This document shows, piece after piece, positions 3,442-29,184 of a DNA stretch of 32,000 nucleotides (its first letter is position 1; each line of letters opens with the position of its first letter). The stretch lies in contig CBDCNV010000002.1 of the NCBI GenBank assembly GCA_965219535.1, positions 870,001 to 902,000 on the forward strand, written 5' to 3'. The notes below the pieces were generated by a model. The model had not been told where the DNA came from. It did not search any database and saw only the letters and a list, made by a program, of their open reading frames with translations. Both the position numbers and the translations under genes were made by a program. Source of the stretch: Opitutales bacterium. Lineage in GTDB: Bacteria > Verrucomicrobiota > Verrucomicrobiia > Opitutales > PNEW01.

Positions 3442-6267
3442 TTAAAGAACAATCCGGACTTCCCTCAATTTAGGAGTCCCACACCCATAAGGCGAAATAA
3501 AGGTCGCTTTATATTGTAGCCATTGGGCATCACTTGGGATTCCTTCAATCGCTTCACCTGATGTTTCATAATAAGACTTGTCGCCATGTGGCCCCGACCA
3601 GGCGGCATCCTCTAATCCCTCTTCTGTTTCACTCCACCGGAGTTGGAATTTAATATTTAAAAGATCTGTCTCTTCACTTTCCCAATGGATGCGGCTCGCC
3701 TCTCTATTACCCAGCTCATAGGGGGGTGAAAAATAATGTTCTTCGGGCTTTCTCGTGTAGGCGTTACCGTGATCATAGGAATACATCCCATGGGGTCCCA
3801 ATCCGGGGAGTCGAGTCGGCTCGGTCGCAAAGAAACCATCGGGGCCATTCCAGTAAATCAATGAATCAACCTGGTGGCCGATGTCATCGCGGTGGCACGC
3901 CAGGACGATATCAATCCATCCATCTCGATTTAAATCAATTTGAATGACGTCCCCCGAGCCGTAGGCTTCAAAGTTTATAGGGTTCTCCAAGTCCAGCCCC
4001 TTCCCATTACCCCAGAATAACTGGGCGGGTGGGACTCTTGTCGTAGGTGTTGCATAGGCAGAGACCACGAGATCTAAATTGCCGTCATTGTTATAATCCG
4101 CGATGCCCGTATACCGGGCGCTGTATGCGCCAAAGTATTCCTGGATATTTTCGGGATCATAACCATCAGGGCTGCCGTAGAAGATACGGAGCGTGTCTTT
4201 ATGGCGGAGTCGGGTGCCAAGAATGCTCACAATCATGTCCAACCAGCCATCCTTATTCATGTCGGCAAAATTTAGTTTTACCACATCTCCCGTCGCGGCG
4301 CAGGGAAGGTATTGTCTGTTGTTTTTGGAAAAACCATCAACTTGACCAAAGTAAATCAGTAACCGGTCCCCAAAATCATGGAAGGCTATATCGATGTAGC
4401 CGTCATTATTGACATCACCGATCGCTGAGGTGAATCCGTGATTCTTTATGCGATCAATACGTGAATTGGAAAATCCGTCCGCCGATCCATAATAGATAAT
4501 CGACGATTTTTCAGGGTCATCCGTGATTTCTTTCACCAACGATACAGCGAGAAGATCGAGATACCCGTCACGATTAAAATCGGTGGTCTCCATATCGTAA
4601 TGGTCATGTCCCGTATGTAAATCGGTAAACTTTTCGGATCTTATCCCTTCGGGCACTCCCTCGTAGATGCGAAGTGCTTTGGGAATGCTGAATACTACTT
4701 CCGGGTAACCATCCAGGTTCAAATCGGCAATTAATGCGACATTGCTATGAAGGGTTTCCAGTTCAAGACGGTTTTTAACACTATACTCAGCTTCTGCGTT
4801 TCCCAGATAGACATAAGAGGGCACATGACTGACATGGCCATCATTGACATTGTTAAATATAACTTCAGGGATTCCGTCCCCGTCGAGATCCCCGGCGGTA
4901 TTTCCGATTACCCCAATCGTCGGAACCCAGCTTGTGTTGTCTTCGGAATAGCCGTCAGGCCCATTCCAATAGATAGGAGACTTCGTTCTGTATTCATTCC
5001 CCTCATAGTACTTGCTGATGATCAACTCGGGAAGTTCGTCACCGTCGAGATCGGCTGCTGTTATCCAGCGTGAATTCTTCACCCTAACCGTTGTTTTTAC
5101 TTTTTCCAGATCGTCACCGGAGCGAATCTGTACACCATCTGTGGTGGCAACTAGGAGGTCCGGGATGCCATCGGTATCGACATCCGCGATTTCAGTACGG
5201 ATTACGTCGCGGTTGAATTCCCCGGTGTGACCTGCCGCCTTAATGATCATCGGGTTCTCTGTATCTATGGCTCCGGTTTTATTCCAGAAAATGCTTAACT
5301 GACCACTGCCACTGAACGTAATGTCAATGTTCCCGTCACCGTTAAGATCTTCCAAGATGACCTGGCTCGCCCCATAAGTCGGTAAGATAAGTGGTTCCTC
5401 GGCATTTACGCCGTCCTTGGTTCCCCAGTATAATAACGATTCCGTATTGCGTTCAACACTTCCTACCCGGGAACTGGCCAAAACAATTTCTGCGTGGCCA
5501 TCATTATTCAGATCTCCTGTGGCGATTCCCACGGCTCCCGTTGCCATCATTCCATATTCCTTACCCTTATCTTCAAAGCTGCGGTTTTCGCCTTGTATAT
5601 AGACATGAGTTAAACGTGGCTTTGCCGGATTGTGGCTGTCTACCCACGCTGAAGGCAAGATCAGGTCAAGCCGCCCATCACGGTTAATGTCGACTGCAAT
5701 CACATCAAAGGACCCGATTGCATGTAGGTCGGTCCGGTCCGCTTCCAGACCCTCGGGTCCGCCCCAGTATATAAAAAAAGGCAATTCAGAGGTGATGCCA
5801 TCATGACCGATAACCGTTACCAGATCATTATGACCGTCACCGTCCACATCGATAACCTTGCTCATATACCCTCTATCCCTGGACATTTGGTGCAGCTTCC
5901 AATTTTCGCCCGAACTTTTTTTCTCGGGTGAGTAGACCCAGGTGGGACCGCGTTCGACTTTATCGTGCGAATTAGCGAGAACGATGTCGACATAGCCATC
6001 GCGGTTAACATCGAAATGATTGATGATCTCAATCTCTCCCTTGGCGTTCACATAAAGATTATTACCTGCGTTTTCAAATTGACCCTGGGAAAACCCATCA
6101 AAACCCTTATGCACCCAGACTTCCGGTGCCTTCATCTCCTCGACCTCCATCCGCGCTTTGCCCATGGAAAAAAGAGAGCTACTGAAAATTAGTGAGATGG
6201 CAATTGAAGCTATCGTTGAGCGTAACAGGTGGAGTGAATGGCTTGAGGTCGTGGTGTGTATTTTCAT
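3442..6267 (-). CDS. FG-GAP/VCBS repeat-containing secreted protein
   Basis: 941-aa ORF with an N-terminal hydrophobic signal/anchor and more than 10 copies of the Ca-binding-type D-x-N-x-D-G-x-x-D motif (DVNRDGYVDIV, DVDGDGHNDLV, DINRDGRLDLI, DLNGDGNIDI, DLDGDGIPEV and others). Confidence 0.85.
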   Translation of the reverse strand: MKIHTTTSSHSLHLLRSTIASIAISLIFSSSLFSMGKARMEVEEMKAPEVWVHKGFDGFSQGQFENAGNNLYVNAKGEIEIINHFDVNRDGYVDIVLANSHDKVERGPTWVYSPEKKSSGENWKLHQMSRDRGYMSKVIDVDGDGHNDLVTVIGHDGITSELPFFIYWGGPEGLEADRTDLHAIGSFDVIAVDINRDGRLDLILPSAWVDSHNPAKPRLTHVYIQGENRSFEDKGKEYGMMATGAVGIATGDLNNDGHAEIVLASSRVGSVERNTESLLYWGTKDGVNAEEPLILPTYGASQVILEDLNGDGNIDITFSGSGQLSIFWNKTGAIDTENPMIIKAAGHTGEFNRDVIRTEIADVDTDGIPDLLVATTDGVQIRSGDDLEKVKTTVRVKNSRWITAADLDGDELPELIISKYYEGNEYRTKSPIYWNGPDGYSEDNTSWVPTIGVIGNTAGDLDGDGIPEVIFNNVNDGHVSHVPSYVYLGNAEAEYSVKNRLELETLHSNVALIADLNLDGYPEVVFSIPKALRIYEGVPEGIRSEKFTDLHTGHDHYDMETTDFNRDGYLDLLAVSLVKEITDDPEKSSIIYYGSADGFSNSRIDRIKNHGFTSAIGDVNNDGYIDIAFHDFGDRLLIYFGQVDGFSKNNRQYLPCAATGDVVKLNFADMNKDGWLDMIVSILGTRLRHKDTLRIFYGSPDGYDPENIQEYFGAYSARYTGIADYNNDGNLDLVVSAYATPTTRVPPAQLFWGNGKGLDLENPINFEAYGSGDVIQIDLNRDGWIDIVLACHRDDIGHQVDSLIYWNGPDGFFATEPTRLPGLGPHGMYSYDHGNAYTRKPEEHYFSPPYELGNREASRIHWESEETDLLNIKFQLRWSETEEGLEDAAWSGPHGDKSYYETSGEAIEGIPSDAQWLQYKATFISPYGCGTPKLREVRIVL

Positions 6268-15123: not shown

Positions 15124-15163
15124 TAATATTCAAAGCTTTTTATTATATCCATAGTTTGAGTAA

Positions 15164-15274
15164 GAAGCGTGCTAGGGACCAACCTTCGCCAAGGCTACGG
15201 CTGGCAGGCAGCCCGCTCCACCTATCATCTTTGAATAATGCAATAAGGGTGGAACGCGGTGTCCCTACCGCGTT
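15164..15274. repeat. REP units flanking the 3' side of the RAYT gene (R-type with 30-bp module, then F-type)
   Basis: 15164-15222 is gaagcgtgctagggac[caaccttcgccaaggctacggctggcaggc]agcccgctccacc. 15248-15274 is GGTGGAACGCGGTGTCCCTACCGCGTT. Confidence 0.85.
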
Positions 15275-15318
15275 TTTTTAAGATTGAATTAATTAAAACT
15301 TCTGAATTACCCGTATAC

Positions 15319-15756
15319 TTAATACTCCAAAGTCCAAGGCCATAACTCTGGTTTCGTGCATAATCCTTTTACTACTGGATTATAACGAATATAGGTGCTT
15401 TTTAATTCAAGTTCTTTATCATTTCTAATGCGGTGATCAAAATAGTTTTCCTGCCATTTTATAAAATTATTACGATGATGGTATTTCTTCCAAATACCTA
15501 TCAAATCGCTCATGTTCTTCTCTGGATTGAAAGACAATATTACATGAAGGTGATCGGGCATCAACACGAAGAGTCGACAATACCAATTACCCTTTTCCTG
15601 ATAGTAGATAACTGAATTGAGTATTTGAATGCCGAGAGAATAATCAGTCAAGGGAGGCTTGTTTTCCTGATGACAGCGAATGCGAATATGAAAGACTGAA
15701 CCAGATCTAACCCAAGATGGTGTCTCATGATAAAGTCGTCTCGGATACCGCTTCAC
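15319..15756 (-). CDS. REP-associated tyrosine transposase (RAYT; IS200/IS605-like Y1 HUH enzyme)
   Basis: 145-aa ORF with the HUH motif MPDHLHVIL, then WQENYFDHRIRN, then the catalytic-Tyr motif YIRYNPVVKGL and WPW. REP units lie in inverted orientation on both flanks. Confidence 0.85.
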   Translation of the reverse strand: MKRYPRRLYHETPSWVRSGSVFHIRIRCHQENKPPLTDYSLGIQILNSVIYYQEKGNWYCRLFVLMPDHLHVILSFNPEKNMSDLIGIWKKYHHRNNFIKWQENYFDHRIRNDKELELKSTYIRYNPVVKGLCTKPELWPWTLEY

Positions 15757-15816
15757 TCTATTCAGTGAAAGCGGAATTGTAAGACAAATATTAAGTTAAT
15801 AATATTAATTGATGTA

Positions 15817-15846
15817 AGAAGCGCGCTAGGGACAGCCCGCTCCACC
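15817..15846. repeat. REP unit flanking the 5' side of the RAYT gene
   Basis: agaagcgcgctagggacagcccgctccacc, followed by the heptad array CCTAAC ACCTAAA ACATAAC. Confidence 0.85.
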
Positions 15847-17928: not shown

Positions 17929-18006
17929 GGGGCAGTAGTTCAGTTGGTTTAGAACGCCGGCCTGTCACGCCGGAGGTCGCGGGTTCAAGTCCCGTCTGTC
18001 CCGCCA
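17929..18006 (+). tRNA. tRNA-Asp: tRNA-Asp (anticodon GTC), CCA encoded
   Basis: Hand-folded cloverleaf. Acceptor GGGGCAG/CTGTCCC (one G-T pair), D stem GTTC/GAAC, anticodon stem CCGGC/GCCGG with loop CTGTCAC, T stem GCGGG/CCCGT with loop TTCAAGT, discriminator G plus CCA. Confidence 0.93.
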
Positions 18007-18228
18007 AATTTTGCATTGCAAAATTTGCCCACCGTAGTCCCGCTATTGCGGGACGAAGGCTGGCCTTTCGTGATCACATACTAGCTCAGCACAACAGCTT
18101 ATTAATCACCATGCCAGTTAATGAAGAGCAAAAGGTTGTTGAATTTGGACCTTTAGATCGGTAACGCATGAATCTTAATAAGAATCGTTTAGTTTAGCGA
18201 TCATTCCTTTTGTTCGCATCATTTTTTC

Positions 18229-20206: not shown

Positions 20207-20298
20207 TTCAAGTCCCGTCTGTCCCGTCAAACTTTGCATTGCAAAGTTTGCCAGCCGTAGCTCAAAGAGCGAAGGATGGCTTTTCGTAATCATCAGCT
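20207..20298 (+). repeat. Duplicate of the tRNA-Asp 3' end plus downstream sequence
   Basis: ttcaagtcccgtctgtcccg (20207-20226) is identical to tRNA positions 17984-18003. The similarity continues through aaaYtttgcattgcaaaRtttgcc...cgaaggNtggcYtttcgtRatca. Confidence 0.85.
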
Positions 20299-20567
20299 GG
20301 TTGCGTACAACAATTTGTCCCAATTCAACCCTAGCTTACCGAAGTCTTTGCATTGCAAAGTTTGCCATCCATCTTGTCGGCCATAGCCTTGGCGATGGCT
20401 GAAGCTCGAAGAGCGAAGGATGGCCTTTCGTGACCGTCACCCAATTATGAACAGCAGGTCACCCGCTTCAACCTCTAGCTTGTCGAAGTCTTTGCTATCG
20501 CAAATTTTAAGCACCCATGTCCCCGTATAACTTCATCACCCTACACTAAAGTCAGGCGATGCCGGCC

Positions 20568-21680: not shown

Positions 21681-21780
21681 CTGATCGTATGCTTGTCATG
21701 TCGTGGAAATCTCAGGCCTTCTGCAATTGGAAGGAAAAAAATAGCAATGCAATGCGCCATAGTTTCGGCAGTTACAAAAT

Positions 21781-22140
21781 GGAAATAGGGTCAGACTGCG
21801 AATTCTTTGATTGATAAGAAACTATGGGAGGACTGGAATTGCAAGAAATGGCTCGAAAACCAAGGTATGAAAGTAACAACGGGCTCTACCACATCATCAA
21901 AAGGGGAAACTATCACCGGGATCTGTTCTATGCGGCGAAAACAAAGAAAGCTTTCAAACGGACGCTGATTAAAGCGTGCAACAGCCCGAAACGGATGGAT
22001 AGCAGCCAGGTTAAATATGGGTGAGTATAATTCAGTTAGTCACAATGTTAGTATCTTTCAGTGTGAGCAGAAGAACAGAGGTAAAGCCTACAGAACTTTG
22101 AATAAAATCAAAGAATTCGCAGTCTGACCCTTTACGTTTT
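21781..22140 (+). mobile_element. MITE-like unit A: 25-bp perfect TIR around a Y1/HUH-transposase N-terminal remnant
   Basis: TIR GGGTCAGACTGCGAATTCTTTGATT at 21788-21812, with its reverse complement at 22106-22130. The internal ORF 21824-22024 encodes ARKPRYESNNGLYHIIKRGNYHRDLF..., which is the conserved N-terminus of COG1943-type transposases. The HUH and Tyr motifs are missing. Confidence 0.75.
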
Positions 22141-22592
22141 CTCATGATGCTGAGGCCGACGTATCGTTAGCAGAAGTGTTTAACTCTACGGGGATAGCGG
22201 GGATGCAGTTGTCGAACGCCGTCTTCAGTGGTAGCACTGGTAAAGTTGGAGTTGATGCCCGTGGGATACCCATATCGGTCCGCTTAACAGTTTGAGATAT
22301 CGATGCTAGTGGATTTGCATTTCCTTACTTATTGTTTGGGCAAGGTTCGTTCACGGTGCCAGCAGCCAATCCAGGATTGCGCATTACTGGAGGAGACTTA
22401 TTTCAATCAAATGGCTCTCCCGTTATAGTAGCAGAAAACGGTTCAACGATACCTGGATTTGACACTCTGATCGCACAGAATAATATCAAATCCCACAACA
22501 CCCCTCAAGCAACTCGAAGCATTGACGCCCCTTTTGCTAATGAAGATGGACAGGAAATTTCTGTTACTGTGGAAGAGGTGACAATTGAGTAA
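22141..22592 (+). pseudogene. 5'-truncated paralog of the C-terminus of the 746-aa secreted protein (1103-3343)
   Basis: Hand translation gives HDAEADVSLAEVFNSTGIAGMQLSNAVFSGSTGKVGVDARGIPISVRLTV*DIDASG...GDLFQSNG...EEVTIE. This aligns with YDAQADVTLVEVVNSTGMGGMQLSNAAFSGSTGKVGVDARGVSIAVRLTVGDIDANG.... An in-frame TGA at 22293-22295 replaces a Gly codon. Homology starts at the end of MITE-like unit A. Confidence 0.85.
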
Positions 22593-22773
22593 TCTCGATA
22601 AAATATCTAAAGCCTACGATCAGTTCCTAGCCTCATACTCCTCAAAGGTAGAACCAATCTCAGAAAGCAACGATTGGCATTTACGCTTAGTATGGATACC
22701 GGACGATAAGCCAGAAGTAATTTACTCCATTGAATACCATAACTGTAAGCCAACAATCGCTCAATTTAGGTGA
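22585..22773 (+). CDS. Hypothetical small protein (doubtful)
   Basis: 62-aa ORF with a TTG start overlapping the pseudogene stop. No recognisable motif. Confidence 0.25.
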   Translation: MSNLDKISKAYDQFLASYSSKVEPISESNDWHLRLVWIPDDKPEVIYSIEYHNCKPTIAQFR

Positions 22774-22790
22774 CTGGCTGATTAGATACA

Positions 22791-23960
22791 CTATCTATGA
22801 AACTTTACAGCCCGACCAAGTGACAATATTGGTTTTTCAAAAAAATGCCAAGACAGTAAACTAATGAATAAGGTCAAGATCAACGCCAAAAAAGTAACAT
22901 AATAATCAACAGGTTGATTAAGTGACGGCCTTTGATTCAAAAACCAAGCATGGCATACCCCATTGACCACTTTATGATACAAATAAACTGCATACGAAAT
23001 AACTCCTAATCCCATTAAGGGGCGAAAAGTCACCAATCGCTGTAAAGGACGCCAAGAACCACTCACAGCTATAAGCAAAAAACTTAGGTAAAAAGCACTT
23101 ATCCAAGTGTGTCCTAGTCCCAACATCCAAGGACTCCCCAATCCAAAGGAAGGCAAAGAAAAGAATATTAACCCTAGCCCTAAAACAACAAAGAGGCTAT
23201 GTAAAAACCAACTCCGGTCTCCCCTCAAAAAGCGTAATGCTCCTGGCTGCCGAATCAAGCACGCGCCACATGCTCCCATGAGAAGACTATCCATCCTTGA
23301 CGGCAACATGTAAAAAGCGCCATAGGCCATTCCAGAAAAGGAATAAAAAAACATCCGAAATAACGGCGCAAATAGAATTAATAAAATCAACATACATGGA
23401 ATGCGTTTAACAGGTATCATCCGAATAAAAAATGGGAAGAGGAGGTAAAATTGTTCCTCAATCGATAAGAACCAGGTTACATCCAAAGCATTCGGCCCGG
23501 GATCCCCTTTCATCATCTGAAAATTTTGCACTAACAAGGGATACTGCCATCCCCTATGCGTATTCATATTAAATAGCCATTCAAGGCCCGCATGCCCACG
23601 CCAGGAAAGAAAATAATAGCCGGTGATAAACAATCCCAAAAGTAAAAAGTAAATCGGAAAAATCCGGCACAAACGACGAACATAAAACGCTTTGTAGTAA
23701 TTATCACCATCGCGATTATCCATCAAAATACCGCCAATTAAAAAACCGGAAAGGACAAAAAACATATCCACTCCCGTCCACGTTAGGGAGAAGATTGGAT
23801 TAATAAAGTGCTGAATTTCATTTAAGTCCGTATCAGGTAAACCATTAAAATGCCCACGGTAATAATGCCATATCAGCACCACGAGAATTGCCATTCCCCG
23901 TATACCATCGAGCTGCGGTACACGGTGTGGTAAACGATCATTCAAAGTTTCATCACTCAT
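22791..23960 (-). CDS. Acyltransferase family 3 (membrane O-acyltransferase, OafA/NolL type)
   Basis: 389-aa polytopic ORF beginning with the family-typical LDGIRGMAILVVLIWHY. About 10 hydrophobic segments. Confidence 0.85.
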   Translation of the reverse strand: MSDETLNDRLPHRVPQLDGIRGMAILVVLIWHYYRGHFNGLPDTDLNEIQHFINPIFSLTWTGVDMFFVLSGFLIGGILMDNRDGDNYYKAFYVRRLCRIFPIYFLLLGLFITGYYFLSWRGHAGLEWLFNMNTHRGWQYPLLVQNFQMMKGDPGPNALDVTWFLSIEEQFYLLFPFFIRMIPVKRIPCMLILLILFAPLFRMFFYSFSGMAYGAFYMLPSRMDSLLMGACGACLIRQPGALRFLRGDRSWFLHSLFVVLGLGLIFFSLPSFGLGSPWMLGLGHTWISAFYLSFLLIAVSGSWRPLQRLVTFRPLMGLGVISYAVYLYHKVVNGVCHAWFLNQRPSLNQPVDYYVTFLALILTLFISLLSWHFFEKPILSLGRAVKFHR

Positions 23961-24091
23961 TTGTTATCACTAAAATATAAAATCGCTACTTGTTAAATCA
24001 AATACGCATGTCCTCATTTTTCCCCATCTCACAATCATTGCTTCGATAATCACCATAATAATATCAAAACAATCTTCTGATAAAATAAAAG

Positions 24092-24459
24092 GGAAATAGG
24101 GTCAGACTGCGAATTCTATGATTGATAAGAAACTATGGAAGGTTTGGAATAGCAAGAAATAGCTCGAAACCATAGGCTTGAAATTAACAATGGGTTCTAC
24201 CACATTATCAAACGGGGAAACTATCACCGGGATCTGTTCTTTGCGGCGAACGGCGAAAACAAAGAGAGCTTTCAAACGGACGCTGATTAAAGCGTGCAAC
24301 AGCCCGAAACGGATGGATCGCAGCCAGGTTAAATATGGGTGAGTATAATTCGGTTAGTCAAAATGCTAGTATCTTTCGGCGTGAGCAGAAAAACAGAAGT
24401 ATAGCCGACAGAACTTTGAATAAAATCAAAGAATTCGCAGTCTGACCCTTTATGTTTTA
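24092..24459 (+). mobile_element. MITE-like unit B (decayed copy of unit A, same orientation)
   Basis: Collinear with unit A at roughly nine identities in ten by eye. The transposase remnant is broken by TAG codons and a cggcgaa tandem duplication. The TIRs are present, with one mismatch. Confidence 0.75.
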
Positions 24460-24517
24460 CGCAGACAACATGACCCCATTTGGGTTTTCCATTAACAACT
24501 GTAGTGTAGTTTGAATT

Positions 24518-25279
24518 TCAGGGCTTCCGCAATTCGAAGATAATAAAGTTTGGGACCCGAAGTTCGTCATCGAGATCTGGATACAATGCCAATTGTTTTT
24601 CTGTTACAGTAGGTTCTATTATGCCTTCAATGCTAAAGCCAGCCTCTAAAAATCCATTGATGTAGGTAGACAAGGAGCGGTGGTAATTAGTAAGGGGGCA
24701 GCTCCTCCATTTCCAATGGCGTCCCCCTTCGTCAAAGTAGTCATCCAGAATTACATGCTTTTTCTCACCGTCCTCTGTCTTAAGCCATACGCCAGCAGCA
24801 GACCGCATGGGGTGTAAGTTAGCTATGATGAACCTTCCCCCGGATTTCAGTATTCGATAAACTTCGATCGTATTTTCATTATGGTTTGGCAGGTCACACT
24901 GATTTAAATAGGACACCGCAAGTTCAAACGAGTTGTCTTCAAGAAAGCTCAGGTCCTGGGCATCGGCAAGACGGTATTCATCACGCTCTGTTTGCAGTTC
25001 TTTCGCAGCTTCAATCATGGGTGCGCAAAGATCGATGCCCAGCACGTAGGATGCACCCCGTGTTGAAAGCATTCTTGAGAATCGGCCTTCACCACACCCG
25101 CAATCGATGACACTGAGGCCTTCTACATTCCCGCAAACACCCAGCATAGATTCATCGAGCAAACCTTTGCGATGGGTATTTTTGCCTTCTCTGGCTTCTT
25201 TGATCCAGCTTGGAGCCATGTCATGCCATTCATTATTAATATCATCCCTTTTCATCTCACTCATTTCGCTTTCTAGCAC
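24518..25279 (-). CDS. Class I SAM-dependent methyltransferase
   Basis: 253-aa ORF with motif I VIDCGCGEGRFS, and post-I GIDL. The start is probably one of the internal Met codons (25264 or 25255), given the overlap with the upstream gene. Confidence 0.85.
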   Translation of the reverse strand: MLESEMSEMKRDDINNEWHDMAPSWIKEAREGKNTHRKGLLDESMLGVCGNVEGLSVIDCGCGEGRFSRMLSTRGASYVLGIDLCAPMIEAAKELQTERDEYRLADAQDLSFLEDNSFELAVSYLNQCDLPNHNENTIEVYRILKSGGRFIIANLHPMRSAAGVWLKTEDGEKKHVILDDYFDEGGRHWKWRSCPLTNYHRSLSTYINGFLEAGFSIEGIIEPTVTEKQLALYPDLDDELRVPNFIIFELRKP

Positions 25280-26048
25280 GTATGTGAAGAAAGTACGCTA
25301 CTACTTGGGCATCCTGCATATCAGGACACGATTGGACAGATTTATCATTTGGACAGGGTTCTTCGACCCGTTCGATCACAAATCCAGTGTCGTTAATAAG
25401 ATTGAGCCATTGACTTATAGTTCGAGTGAAGCGCGGTGTCTTAAATTTATTTAGTTTCTCTCTAATTTCCATTGGGGCAGAGTTAAAAGTCCATTCATTG
25501 ATGTCACCTTGCAGGTTGCGGAAATAATCGCCAACTTCGATCGCATAAGTCAGGCCTTCCTCATTTCTTAGGTTACGTCGATGTGGAGTTGAAAAACAGG
25601 GATGTTCAATTGAAAACTGAATGAAACCACCAGGTCCGATTACTCGATGGGCTTGTCTAAGCGCAAGATCGATTTCAGGGATGCTCATGAAACTCATGAA
25701 TGCTACAGCAAAGTCAAATTCGGCATCGTTAAAAGGCAGGTCAACAGCGCTCGCAATTTTGTAGTCAATCCCAACTGGCTCTTTTTCTTCTGTCTGCTTT
25801 GCGAATCGGATGAAATCCTCGGAAATGTCAATGGCTGTTACACGTGCGCCGCGATCTGCAAGGATTCGTGTGTTGTGGCCTTCGCCGCAACCAATGTCCA
25901 ACCCTGATAGCCCGGCAACCTCGGGCAGCATGTCGAAGAAGGCTGGCGTATTGAGATAATCCCGATACAAATCGTATCCAGCTCTGGAAAGCTTAGTCCA
26001 AGCCTCAGCATTCCCGTTCCAATATTTTCCAACTTCTTCGTGATTCAT
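25257..26048 (-). CDS. Class I SAM-dependent methyltransferase (diverged tandem paralog)
   Basis: 263-aa ORF with motif I GLDIGCGEGHNTRILADRGARVTAIDIS. Confidence 0.85.
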   Translation of the reverse strand: MNHEEVGKYWNGNAEAWTKLSRAGYDLYRDYLNTPAFFDMLPEVAGLSGLDIGCGEGHNTRILADRGARVTAIDISEDFIRFAKQTEEKEPVGIDYKIASAVDLPFNDAEFDFAVAFMSFMSIPEIDLALRQAHRVIGPGGFIQFSIEHPCFSTPHRRNLRNEEGLTYAIEVGDYFRNLQGDINEWTFNSAPMEIREKLNKFKTPRFTRTISQWLNLINDTGFVIERVEEPCPNDKSVQSCPDMQDAQVVAYFLHIRARKRNE

Positions 26049-26137
26049 ATTTCGATCGTATTCAATTGCCTTACATTAGATTTGATAATCGGCAATTTAT
26101 CAAATCTCGGTTGTAGCGGGAAGAAAGTAATATAAGG

Positions 26138-26166
26138 GAATTCGCAGTCTGACCCTTTATGTTTTC
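26138..26166. repeat. Solo right-end unit of the GGGTCAGACTGCGAATTC family
   Basis: gaattcgcagtctgaccctttatgttttc matches the right ends of units A and B. No partner left end is nearby. Confidence 0.8.
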
Positions 26167-26295
26167 CTCTGAGGCGTTTAATTGTTCTCCTACCACATCG
26201 GTCACCCAGTAATCCAGCACTTCCTTTTCATGATCGTCAACGGTCCCTGATGCATGGCTTCTGTTTGATCCGACCTTTCGCCATCATTTGTGCCA

Positions 26296-27639
26296 TCACG
26301 TGGCTGGGTTCATGGGGCCGAGACGCTCGATGCGGCGGCGGGTGGCTAACAGAACTATGGTAGCAGCTCCCAGGGCCACTGCAAAGGCTCCGTATTCAAT
26401 GCTCGGTGCACGGGAACTGGCGGACGCGACGTACCCTCCGAGCAAGCCCCCCAGTCCGGTCGAAACGAACCACACGCCCGTGAGCCGCTCCACCCAGCCA
26501 TCTGGCGCCCAGCGAGTAACCATCGACAGGCCGACGGGACCGAGGATCGCAACCGCCGCGGCTTGCAGAACATAGAAAGACAGCAACATGCCAGCACTCG
26601 CACCCTGAGAGCCATCCGGCGCTAAGCCCCGTGCAGCAACGCTGAGCAACAAGAAGGACGCGGCAATGAATGCGATGCTGATCGCGATCTTCGTTGGTGC
26701 CGACTGCGGCGCGCCCCGATCTTCCAAGCGACGCCACACCGCAGCGACCGGCAGGGCCAAGGCGACCACGAACAGCGCGAACACCGACAGGAACACGGTA
26801 GGCGGTACCTCCCAGCCGAGCACTCGCCGATCGACAAAGTTCTGCGCGAAAAACACCACCGAACCGCCCATCTGACTGCAGCCCACATAGAACACCAAGC
26901 AGAACAGCGCAAGCAACAGAACCCCCAACACGCGGCGCTTTTCATGGGGCGACAACGCTTCCCTCTTATTGGCGCCTCCCCCCGCGATGGCCACGGCAGT
27001 AACGCGCCGCGTCGCTAACGCGAGCACCACGACCCCCAACACTGCCGCCAGTGCCAGCATAACATAGAAACCCGTCCAGTCGAGACGGACCACTACCGGA
27101 CCGGCTAGCGCCTGCGTCGCAAACGTCCCCATAGTCGACACCATGTAGAAGATGACAAAACCGTCGTCGCGTTTGCTTCTCGTGGAGGTCGAGGATTCGC
27201 CAACATTATATGCGTCGCTAACCATGGTGACGACGGTCGGCCAAAACAAACCGTAGCCCAAAGTTATAAGCACCGCGCCGACGAGCGTGAAGTTCGGCGA
27301 CCCGACGAGAAATAGAAGCGACCCACTGCAGAGACACAACAGCGCAGCTTGGGCGATGTGTACACACCGTTGCGGCGCGGCAGCGGACCGAAGCCGCGAC
27401 ACCGCGAACCCGCCGAGTGCGGGCATCATAAAAGCGAGCCCCAACATCAGCCCGTACGATGACATCGCTCGCTCCTGGCTAAATCCGAGGCGACTGGTGG
27501 CGTAGAGCGGGAACATGCTCGCCAAGCCCCAGAAACAGAAATTGTGCAAGAGCGCGACCCCACTAAGAATTTTTGTCGTCGCCGATAGTGAACGCCAGTT
27601 CATGAGTATCACTCTTATGAAACTGCCCGATTCGGGCAA
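26296..27639 (-). CDS. MFS-type transporter
   Basis: 447-aa ORF in the high-G+C block, made almost entirely of hydrophobic segments (about a dozen) with a central charged loop (ATRRVTAVAIAGGGANKREALSPHEKRR). Confidence 0.7.
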   Translation of the reverse strand: MPESGSFIRVILMNWRSLSATTKILSGVALLHNFCFWGLASMFPLYATSRLGFSQERAMSSYGLMLGLAFMMPALGGFAVSRLRSAAAPQRCVHIAQAALLCLCSGSLLFLVGSPNFTLVGAVLITLGYGLFWPTVVTMVSDAYNVGESSTSTRSKRDDGFVIFYMVSTMGTFATQALAGPVVVRLDWTGFYVMLALAAVLGVVVLALATRRVTAVAIAGGGANKREALSPHEKRRVLGVLLLALFCLVFYVGCSQMGGSVVFFAQNFVDRRVLGWEVPPTVFLSVFALFVVALALPVAAVWRRLEDRGAPQSAPTKIAISIAFIAASFLLLSVAARGLAPDGSQGASAGMLLSFYVLQAAAVAILGPVGLSMVTRWAPDGWVERLTGVWFVSTGLGGLLGGYVASASSRAPSIEYGAFAVALGAATIVLLATRRRIERLGPMNPAT

Positions 27640-27642
27640 TTT

Positions 27643-28938
27643 TCATCGATGTCCTTCCCTTGACGCGTCCGGGTTGGTGCTGCTAAGAGTTGTAACGCGG
27701 TGCTTGGCATGGCTTTGCATTTTCTGAGCGAACTTCTTCGCGCGCTCCATCGATTCGCCGACTCCACGCACGCAATCCTCGGTTTCCCACCGGTGAATCG
27801 CATCCGCGTCTTCGGACTCCAGTTTTCCGTTGTCGGCGAGAGCCCGAATTTCCTCGCCGCCGCACCACCGGAACTCCGGCCCGGGTGTGCGAGCGGCCGT
27901 TGCCCCTTCGCTGTCCTGGTAAGCATAAACCCGGCGGACGCCGTCCTCGTTACGATAATCGGCAATGTAAGTCATCCACGGGATCTCGAGACCGTATTTC
28001 TTCTGTAGCGACATATCCAGCTGCCCGATTACATCGGCCGTTACCGACTCCTGCACTAGCTTTTCCAGCGGAGCCGCGCCCGGCAGTTTCCAATCCCTGG
28101 CATCGCCTTCCACGAGCAGGAAATTCCCCCCATGATCGACAATCAACCGCGCCTCCGCAAAAAACTGATCCCCGTGATGCGGCACAAATCGCTTGCCCTC
28201 CTCGCTGAACGCCGAGAAAGCTCTCTCGCGAAACAACTGCGGGCCGCATCCCGGCGGTGCATTGACGGCCCGGTACTTGAGGTAGATCCCGTACCGGTCG
28301 TGATTTGAACGGTTACCCTTGCCCTCGTGCCAGGTGAACCCGTGTATGAAGCAAAGGTCGCCCCGCTTTAGTTCCGCATCGATCAGCGGCGCGATGTCGG
28401 ACGCCTGCGCGCGATGGACCTCGCTAACCTTGTCGGTGACCGGCACGATCTTCGACTCCCTGTGCGAGCCGGGGGAAACGAGTAGCGAACCGGTCTCTTC
28501 ATCTAGATCGGTGAGCGGAATAATCGCAAATAGCCAGTTGAGCGACGAACCCGCCTGCTGGTAGGTCTTGTAGTCGCAGTGCCCGGTGGGGTGACTCCCC
28601 TGGTAATCGCCTTGGGTGCCGACGGCCCCGGGCGTTTTCAAGTAAGAAACGAAGGCCGAAAGACAGACGTTACCGCCAAGAAGCGATTCGACCGGACCGG
28701 TAACGGCCGGATGCTCGCCAATTAACAATAGATCCGGATCGTCCTGATACTGTCCTTCAACCGTATACAAAGTCTTCGGCGCCGGATAGACTTTTCCGCA
28801 GCTGCTGCAATTGCCGGATGTGACCGCCCCGTACACTCCACGATCCAGGCGCTCCAACTCTTCATCCGTAAACGCCCCCTTTACGACGAGATAACCGTTT
28901 TCGTCGTAAAATTGTCTTTGCTCCAAAGTCAGGTTCAT
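27643..28938 (-). CDS. Phytanoyl-CoA dioxygenase (PhyH)-family Fe(II)/2-oxoglutarate oxygenase with a ~170-aa C-terminal extension
   Basis: The N-terminus LTLEQRQFYDENGYLVVKGAFTDEELERL is typical of PhyH proteins. Candidate facial triad: HCD (in HPTGHCDYK) and the His in GFTWHEGKGNRS. It lies 3 nt upstream of the MFS gene. Confidence 0.75.
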   Translation of the reverse strand: MNLTLEQRQFYDENGYLVVKGAFTDEELERLDRGVYGAVTSGNCSSCGKVYPAPKTLYTVEGQYQDDPDLLLIGEHPAVTGPVESLLGGNVCLSAFVSYLKTPGAVGTQGDYQGSHPTGHCDYKTYQQAGSSLNWLFAIIPLTDLDEETGSLLVSPGSHRESKIVPVTDKVSEVHRAQASDIAPLIDAELKRGDLCFIHGFTWHEGKGNRSNHDRYGIYLKYRAVNAPPGCGPQLFRERAFSAFSEEGKRFVPHHGDQFFAEARLIVDHGGNFLLVEGDARDWKLPGAAPLEKLVQESVTADVIGQLDMSLQKKYGLEIPWMTYIADYRNEDGVRRVYAYQDSEGATAARTPGPEFRWCGGEEIRALADNGKLESEDADAIHRWETEDCVRGVGESMERAKKFAQKMQSHAKHRVTTLSSTNPDASREGHR

Positions 28939-28947
28939 GGTGGTTAT

Positions 28948-29184
28948 TTACTCTCGGTGATCGGGGGCCCGGCAAGCGCAATCGATGACACTGAGGCCTT
29001 CTACATTTCCGCATTCACCCAGCATAGATTCATCGAGCAAGCCGTTGCGATGAGTATTTTTGCCTTCTCTGGACTCTTTGATCCAGTCTGGAGCCAAGTC
29101 AAGCCATTCATTATTAAAATCATCCCTGTTCATCCCACTCATCATTAGGCATTCAATCTCAAAAAGCAGATACAATTGTTCCAA
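28948..29184 (-). pseudogene. Truncated N-terminal fragment of a methyltransferase paralog
   Basis: 28985-29144 aligns at nucleotide level (about nine in ten by eye) with 25100-25264. The protein MSGMNRDDFNNEWLDLAPDWIKESREGKNTHRNGLLDESMLGECGNVEGLSVIDC|ACRAPDHRE breaks exactly at SAM motif I (VIDCGCGEG in the intact copy). Confidence 0.85.

Follow-up and report, generated by a model that had tools for sequence, protein, structure and literature searches.

The 32,000-nucleotide stretch of an Opitutales bacterium examined here (contig CBDCNV010000002.1, positions 870,001 to 902,000; hereafter the window) contains, at positions 21,781 to 26,166, two similar short units with inverted ends, A and B, and a lone right end of the same kind. 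Both units enclose the beginning of a gene for a Y1/HUH transposase, and genes lie between them. The question raised by this locus is what such units are: an intermediate on the way from a locus for a repetitive extragenic palindrome (REP)-associated tyrosine transposase (RAYT) to a REP doublet forming hairpins (REPIN), portable ends that move the genes they bracket, or reduced copies of some other mobile element. Our analyses indicated that A and B are probably non-autonomous, internally deleted copies of a one-gene element of ~1,050 bp known as a TIRtron, whose gene encodes a TIR-associated tyrosine transposase (TIRYT) of the Y1/HUH type. The features of the units are as follows.

21776-22142, plus strand: unit A, 345-bp class, a probable non-autonomous, internally deleted TIRtron copy; core 21787-22131
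21848-21979, plus strand: 5' coding remnant of the TIRYT gene in unit A, first ~45-50 codons (MARKPRYESNNGLYHIIKRGN...), from translation
21975-22127, plus strand: remnant of the 3' coding end in unit A, comprising the last ~45 codons in a frame other than that of the 5' remnant, from translation in frame +2
24087-24460, plus strand: unit B, 345-bp class, older and more decayed; core 24098-24449
26138-26167, plus strand: solo right end, 19 nt of the right-arm end and an 11-nt terminal extension, TTTATGTTTTC

The inverted-end units and the solo end had been proposed in an earlier reading of the window made from the sequence only, and they proved to be real, with arms of 26 nt where that reading gave 25. 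The arms of unit A (AGGGTCAGACTGCGAATTCTTTGATT, at 21787-21812 and 22106-22131) have 100% complementarity, those of unit B (24098-24123 and 24424-24449) have 96%, and the lone right end comprises 19 nt at 26138-26156. The 18-mer core of the arm, GGGTCAGACTGCGAATTC, occurs five times in the window against an expected 0.01, a count reached in none of 100 shuffles. Units A and B align with 91% identity over ~370 nt, with a 7-nt insertion in B, and the coding remnant of B is broken as that reading had described it, by in-frame stop codons and a 7-bp tandem duplication of CGGCGAA (24244-24257). Sequence shared from copy to copy extends ~11 nt past each arm, giving unit A its limits of about 21776-22142. 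A search of the window against Rfam identified a tRNA only.

Translation of unit A identified the peptide MARKPRYESNNGLYHIIKRGNYHRDLFYAAKTKKAF, encoded from 21848. The sequence-only reading had the units keep only the first ~50 codons of their gene; these codons are present, but translation in all frames showed that the last ~45 codons (NGWIAARLNMGEYNSVSHNV...KIKEFAV, then stop) are also retained, in another frame, with the stop codon of the gene (TGA, 22125-22127) falling within the right arm of unit A. The HUH and Tyr motifs are deleted from the window units, in agreement with the view that these are internally deleted Y1/HUH transposase genes with defined inverted ends.

To find other copies, a scan with the 18-mer was carried out that covered one genome per species. 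Many copies were found in two Opitutales metagenome-assembled genomes, OY829953.1 (OY; a 4.49-Mb chromosome) and CBDANS01 (CB), while the other matches were isolated singles in unrelated genomes, in about the number predicted by chance. There were at least 19 arm copies in OY, with copies at a minimum of 11 loci, and at least eight in CB, with copies at a minimum of seven. The sister genome OY contains a full-length parent with the same arms as the units (L002 6757-7806, 1,050 bp), whose intact open reading frame (ORF) encodes a protein of 327 residues beginning MARKPR, in which HYH represents the HUH motif and NYIHLNP the tyrosine motif. At the nucleotide level, the 5' remnant of unit A is 89% identical to L002 6754-6950 and its 3' remnant is 91% identical to L002 7650-7820. 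A peptide search with a composite N- plus C-terminal query returned two short fragments only. The copies fall into four size classes.

1,050-bp class: L002 (OY) and L015 (CB)
345-bp class: units A and B of the window, L013 and L018
309-bp class: L006
189-bp class: five copies in OY and four in CB

Joint alignment showed one deletion junction to be common to all four 345-bp copies, and a second to all nine 189-bp copies. An identical junction within each class at unlinked loci means that the derivatives spread after the deletion, and the aligned copies show each deletion class to have arisen once and then to have reached unlinked loci. The same alignments gave relative ages. Unit A is 98-99% identical to the 345-bp copies of OY over shared positions (98% to L013 7224-7589), whereas unit B is 86-91% identical to the other copies and is thus the older of the two. 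The intact relative and the additional short copies which the sequence-only reading had thought worth seeking are therefore both present, in OY for the former and in OY and CB for the latter.

The parent protein scored 50.9 bits with the Pfam Y1_Tnp model (cutoff 23), 66.2 bits with the NCBIfam RAYT model NF047646, under its cutoff of 80, and 28 bits with the NCBIfam IS200 model NF033573, under its cutoff of 55. More than 6,800 relatives of ~311-327 residues were found; those with names are from Verrucomicrobiota (Opitutaceae, Pelagicoccus) and labeled "transposase" or "RayT", and many members of the family come from contigs as long as the element itself (~1.05 kb). The AlphaFold (AF2) model of a homologue with 87% identity (pLDDT 87.6) had as its best match the E. 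coli REP-associated tyrosine transposase 4er8 (E 1e-6, TM 0.72), followed by the TnpA proteins of ISDra2 and IS608. Three related elements (L025, L026 and L027; ~46-76% identity) are also units of ~1.05 kb with inverted ends of 26 to 40 nt, each with GGGTCA at the outer side of its ends and with a stop codon overlapped by the right arm.

The names TIRtron and TIRYT were introduced for RAYT-like genes that lie between long inverted repeats and not between REPs (Di Nocera 2013, PMC3733652). They were described as having the end motif GGGGWSAS and a repeat overlapping the gene end, and their repeats as forming moderately abundant families present as singles, dimers and groups (PMC3733652). Most TIRYTs were later placed in TnpA-Y1 subclass 2.1 (Quentin 2018, PMC6006769), which corresponds to RAYT Group 1 of Bertels 2017 (PMC6006769, PMC5581495). 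Proteins of subclass 2.1 are long, lack REPs, have a helix-turn-helix (HTH)-like C-terminal extension (Bac_DnaA_C, HTH_23 or HTH_28) and carry the signatures NH[YF]H, FQ, Y[IV]HLNP and SS (PMC6006769).

All of these signatures were present in the parent and in invariant columns of an alignment of 33 members. The outer ends of the arms carry a GGGTCAG motif, and the GGGGWSAS motif is matched exactly in L025 and L027 (GGGGTCAG) and at seven of eight positions in the window and OY copies (AGGGTCAG). The inverted repeats form a repeated family, with five arm copies in the window and more in OY and CB. The resemblance to TIRtrons/TIRYTs therefore takes in a RAYT-like Y1/HUH gene between long inverted repeats and not REP hairpins, the end motif, a right repeat that overlaps the 3' end of the gene, a long protein with a C-terminal extension and the subclass signatures, and repeats that also occur as singles, pairs and groups. 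As judged from these shared characters, the element is a member of the TIRtron/TIRYT class already described (TnpA-Y1 subclass 2.1).

The architecture of the units had been read earlier as REP-like ends around a deleted Y1 gene, that is, as a stage on the way from a RAYT locus to a REPIN or a miniature inverted-repeat transposable element (MITE). Single ends, however, do not fold (z +2.3 to -0.85), and the arms hold no palindrome beyond GAATTC. Whole units fold as a panhandle via their arms (z -5.1 and -6.5), with pairing that continues imperfectly for ~11 nt outward of the arms. Since neither end folds alone, the ends are not REP-like, and the proposal of a RAYT-to-REPIN intermediate gives way to that of a deletion derivative of a TIRtron/TIRYT.

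Insertion could be followed at one partial filled/empty pair, upstream of a conserved PhoD gene, where the site is empty in OY and L036 (...AAAGTAAGAAATA followed by CCATTCTAAC) and filled in CB (...CTGACCCTTTACGTTTT followed by CCATTCTAAC). At the right junction, L035 and L036 read ...GTAAGAAATA and L007 reads ...CCCTTTACGTTTT, each continuing into CCATTC. The insert ends 11 nt past the right arm, with no duplication at this readable junction, and no direct repeats were found flanking any copy, so that the earlier remark on the absence of target duplications holds. The empty site already has GTAAGAAAT, which agrees at 8/9 positions with GGAAGAAAT, the sequence found before each readable 189-bp copy of that subtype. 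Based on this, the left "extension" is more likely a target motif than a part of the element; across copies, the left flanks end in ...AAAT(A). By analogy, a left target motif and an element-borne right tail without duplication fit the Y1 pattern of the IS200/IS605 family.

The copies were co-oriented within all seven multi-copy loci, namely the window, L007, L027 and L033 (three copies each) and L009, L017 and L006 (two each), for which the chance is about 1/2048 assuming independent insertions. Neighbors in one orientation and the lack of target duplication would fit single-strand Y1 chemistry. The deletion series also suggests what each end needs to keep, about 100 nt at the left and about 87 nt at the right.

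Other features of the arms were observed in the course of these comparisons. Three independent breakpoints lie exactly at the GAATTC core of the arm: in the window at 26136-26143 (GG before GAATTCGCAG, the solo end), in the CB copy L007 at 2159-2168 (CAGC before GAATTCTTTG) and in L028 at ~5350 (CAATTC before TCAAAT). These could mark a cleavage or recombination hot spot within the arm. In many OY copies the arm tip and its adjacent flank are duplicated in tandem with a short period (14-20 nt), sometimes at both ends (L013 7190-7233 and 7579-7620, L018 1395-1430, L014 3304-3335, L009 3440-3477 and 7380-7406; for example GGGAAATAGGGTCAG-AAAAT-GGAAATAGGGTCAGACTG...), which may have been left by earlier copies at that site or have arisen by slippage at the base of the stem. 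In addition, CB has a 1.58-kb IS4-family element encoding a 416-residue protein (DDE_Tnp_1 and Nterm_IS4 domains), with 19-bp ends CCCTTATCTTAACGCCATT, whose copies (L005 4790-6371; L011 3772-5351 and 6582-8000; L015 1177-2756; L023 4504-6085) are 99.5-100% identical. Every copy seen sits in the outer tip of an arm of a TIRYT-derived unit, where it has duplicated ~11 bp (CAGTCTGACCC), and the element appears to target these arms specifically. Collapsed ends in CB (CGGGTC/TGACCCT beside CCCTTATCTTAACGCCATT), considered as excision footprints or empty sites, were rejected as such, as they are the ~11-bp target duplications of the IS4-family element.

Together, these data lead us to propose the following origin for the units. 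One deletion fused codon ~50 of the TIRYT gene to its last ~45 codons, producing the 345-bp class, and a larger deletion produced the 189-bp class. The transposase would be supplied in trans by a full-length copy, such as the intact one in OY, and would act on single-stranded DNA with paired arms, the panhandle formed by the arms taking the place of the subterminal hairpins of IS200/IS605 elements or the REP hairpins of RAYT systems. Insertion would take place beside a (G)GAAGAAAT/GGAAAT-like motif and would duplicate no target sequence, and the inserted DNA would terminate 11 nt beyond the right arm.

A number of observations weigh against this proposal. The 2.31-Mb contig of the window yielded no full-length copy, the cluster of the OY protein at 90% identity has no member there, and the full-length copy in CB (L015) is frameshifted. 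The C-terminal HTH expected for subclass 2.1 escaped detection by sequence methods, with no Pfam hit in the 33 members and a negative comparison of the C-terminal profile with the PDB; hhalign against E. coli DnaA domain IV returned a probability of 0.2%, although in the AF2 model the C-terminal domain is confidently helical. The evidence on insertion comes from a single filled/empty pair, whose left junction is masked by an IS4-family insertion, and the 11 nt of left flank shared by unit A and L013 of the 345-bp class (AAAATGGAAAT) are a poor fit with a target-derived flank. The agreement of copy orientation with local GC skew is weak (14/19) and confounded by gene strand. Finally, the searchable literature contains no experimental report of TIRYT transposition, and the name is used there in two comparative papers only.

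The units differ from the published descriptions of TIRtrons in that the repeat pairs can be followed through successive nested deletions, from 1,050 to 345 and 189 bp, in which both gene ends are kept, and the comparative evidence for spread and for insertion without target duplication is found in neither PMC3733652 nor PMC6006769. Among other known systems, IS200/IS605 elements such as IS608 and ISDra2 share the Y1/HUH fold, insertion that appears, from the one filled/empty pair, to be next to a specific short motif and without target duplication, asymmetric ends of which the right reaches past the structured part, and co-oriented copies. In contrast to them, the element here has true inverted ends and no end or subterminal hairpins, and its protein of 327 residues is twice as long, with a Tyr motif of YIHLNP and not Y-x3-Q and the score on the NCBIfam IS200 model given above. 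MITEs and mobile insertion cassettes (MICs) are also short, non-coding derivatives of an autonomous element by internal deletion, bounded by inverted repeats and presumed to be mobilized in trans, and the short copies here have the ends of their parent and one deletion junction per class. Classical MITEs, however, are derived from DDE elements and have target-site duplications, whereas the units here are Y1-derived and no copy is flanked by such a duplication. The carriage of passenger genes would be MIC-like behavior, for which there is only a candidate here.

RAYT/REPIN systems were reportedly described by Nunvar in 2010 and by Bertels and Rainey in 2011. The likeness to them consists of about one intact Y1 relative per genome together with short non-coding derivatives that have inverted repeats and form hairpins when the DNA is single-stranded, and the nearest solved structure is that of the E. 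coli RAYT. Here, by contrast, the arms are not REP palindromes in themselves and lack the GTAG tag, the units are derived from a gene by deletion and are not REP doublets, they are present in tens of copies and not hundreds, and the protein falls short of the NCBIfam RAYT cutoff. The window itself offers a REP-type locus for comparison, a 145-residue RAYT gene (15319-15756; Y1_Tnp) that scored 78 bits with the NCBIfam RAYT model, just below the cutoff. It is flanked by 31-nt inverted repeats (15248-15278 and 15816-15846), both of which include a REP-like palindrome (AACGCGGT...ACCGCGTT, one strand reading GTAG); upstream, at 15162-15179, is a third copy of the repeat. This locus is a canonical REPtron that shares the window with the TIRYT-derived units, and comparison of the Pfam and NCBIfam profiles agreed with the sequence-only reading that the two transposases belong to different clades.

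To investigate the genes around the units, relatives of the locus were recovered through their flanking proteins (L028, L029/L030 and, from OY, L031/L032). In all of them the second of two neighboring methyltransferase genes (MT1 and MT2) and a gene for a 370-residue protein are ~31 bp apart, so the window has an extra block of 2.78 kb between the two. The features of this block are as follows.

21742-24517, no strand assigned: 2.78-kb block absent from three relatives, from comparison with these relatives
21712-21741, plus strand: diverged copy of the last ~30 bp of MT2, a direct repeat with 24518-24547 that flanks the block
22791-23960, minus strand: acyltransferase gene (Acyl_transf_3, Pfam PF01757, E 7e-24), candidate passenger between A and B
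24464-24490, plus strand: short remnant similar to the end sequence of a second TIRYT-derived family (GACAACATGACCCCATTTGGGTTTTCC)

The block consists, in order, of 45 bp, unit A, an Ig_7 fragment (22144-22595), a small ORF, the acyltransferase gene, unit B and 68 bp. The ~30-bp sequence from the 3' end of MT2 is single in L028 and L029 and double in the window. As the edges lie outside the units, 45 bp to the left of A and 68 bp to the right of B, and the MT2 repeat flanks the block, a composite transposon bounded by the left end of A and the right end of B is not demonstrated. The suggestion of the sequence-only reading that the A-to-B segment is present or absent as a unit was thus borne out by its absence from three relatives but not by the position of its edges. 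The same reading had the two methyltransferases bracketed as cargo by B and the solo end; MT1 and MT2 occupy this place in all the relatives examined, whether these have units or not, and so are not cargo. At the solo-end site itself, L029 has the same remnant, OY has a complete 345-bp unit (L013 7234-7578, the same as L031 7993-8337) and L028 has neither. The solo right end is the remnant of an older, decayed copy.

As gene order in the relatives would have it, the units sit at synteny breakpoints, in a hotspot of gene turnover. The Ig_7 fragment, the 3' end of an Ig_7-domain gene that is truncated at its 5' side and 73% identical to L033 10843-11294, directly abuts the right end of unit A, placing this unit on a gene-truncating breakpoint. 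The MFS/POT gene (26296-27639, within 26167-27723) and the PhyH gene (27643-28938) are richer in G+C (57-58%) than the neighboring sequence (41-46%). L029 lacks the MFS gene, so that the solo end abuts PhyH there, and L028 lacks both genes, so a second difference in gene content begins exactly at the solo end. A 166-bp piece comprising the start of MT2 and the end of MT1 (25099-25264) is duplicated with ~91% identity at 28977-29142, between PhyH and a gene for a 149-residue protein, which, like the ~30-bp MT2 repeat around the A-to-B block, suggests copies of neighboring methyltransferase sequence at the borders of inserted blocks.

Such a setting raises the possibility that the units mobilize cargo, two co-oriented units acting as left and right ends on which a TIRYT in trans would move the acyltransferase block; repeated events would build arrays of units interleaved with accessory genes. 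We regard this as unlikely. Besides the absence of the block from three relatives, the closest one included, it is favored by the distribution of the acyltransferase, whose cluster at 90% identity has three members, none of them in OY. Close relatives gave one other independent context, L033, in which the gene (95% nucleotide identity) has an unrelated neighborhood and lies between three co-oriented units of ~430 bp from a different TIRYT-derived family that keep 91 codons (end sequence ATGGGGTCATGTCTTGAC...). A third context, L034, was rejected, as it is the window's own genome (99.98% identity). A TIRYT remnant lies less than 150 bp upstream of two of the acyltransferase's five nearest metagenome homologues, the only two matches in 295 kb, and other co-oriented unit pairs flank one to four accessory-type genes. 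However, the block is bordered by the diverged MT2 repeat and not by unit ends, and the window and L033 share only the gene and ~35 to 58 bp, not the units. Breakpoints of the window and L033 cassettes have no motif in common, and the match of the 24464-24490 remnant to the L033 unit ends (...GACATGACCCCATTTTATCCC) is weak, at ~14 nt. MT1 and MT2 are ancestral at their position, and in CB units also bracket the core gene PhoD (a 29-member cluster), so that bracketing does not imply cargo. Gene patchiness in L009 and L006 does not discriminate, since the flanking genes are singletons just as the enclosed ones are. That TIRYT-derived units in general serve as portable ends which capture and move accessory genes with a Y1 transposase in trans is likewise doubtful. 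Distant Acyl_transf_3 homologues in soil metagenomes also lie next to TIRYT remnants: in L037 a homologue bracketed by a 71-nt direct repeat (2626-2696 and 4189-4259) has a TIRYT fragment of the C-terminal HTH region (2692-2883) directly upstream, and in L039 an N-terminal TIRYT fragment (494-583) lies directly upstream of the homologue.

The units might instead be immobile relics, decayed pseudogene fragments of an element that was once active, any duplication of which was due to segmental duplication or ordinary recombination, and whose present role is confined to that of substrates for homologous recombination and rearrangement. The broken state of B and its 86-91% identity to other copies, the lack of a parent on the 2.31-Mb contig, the coincidence of units with synteny breakpoints and the three truncations at the GAATTC core are all compatible with this. 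We nevertheless think it improbable, as the copies at 13 unlinked loci in two genomes agree in their junctions, unit A matches OY copies from non-orthologous sites with 98-99% identity, the right junction of the insertion upstream of PhoD is clean, and the defined ends are far better conserved than the interiors. The decay of interiors, seen in B, also bears on domestication, in which panhandle units would serve the host as stabilizers of transcript ends, terminators or protein-binding sites, as proposed for REPs and bacterial interspersed mosaic elements. The strong long-range stem and the placement of all units between genes, often just 3' of one, agree with such a role, but copy number is low (about 10 per genome), neighbors are variable and no conserved position relative to genes was seen, and we give this very little credence. 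Internally deleted TIRtron copies, mobilized in trans, remain our preferred reading of A and B.

The window contains repeats of yet another kind. A palindrome, CAAAYTTTGCATTGCAAARTTTG, occurs at 18005-18027, 20228-20250 and 20346-20364 (three sites against 0.03 expected), one site being immediately 3' of a tRNA gene (17929-18003). Near these sites is a pair of 98-nt direct repeats (20254-20351 and 20398-20495) with 70% identity.

The combination of a Y1 single-strand enzyme with true inverted ends is mechanistically odd. For this combination, the locus and its sister genomes provide a natural deletion series that defines what each end must keep, as well as a candidate target motif, a defined right terminus and an intact candidate enzyme, thereby adding comparative evidence on mobility, end requirements and target choice to what has been described for the TIRYT class. 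In practical terms, units of ~190 to 350 bp explain short "transposase" ORF fragments and breaks of synteny in the annotation of Opitutales genomes. Should the units prove to be portable ends after all, Verrucomicrobiota would have co-oriented arrays of small cassettes carrying acyltransferases and other modifying enzymes, and these would represent a single-strand-transposase analogue of mobile insertion cassettes or of IS26-type translocatable units.

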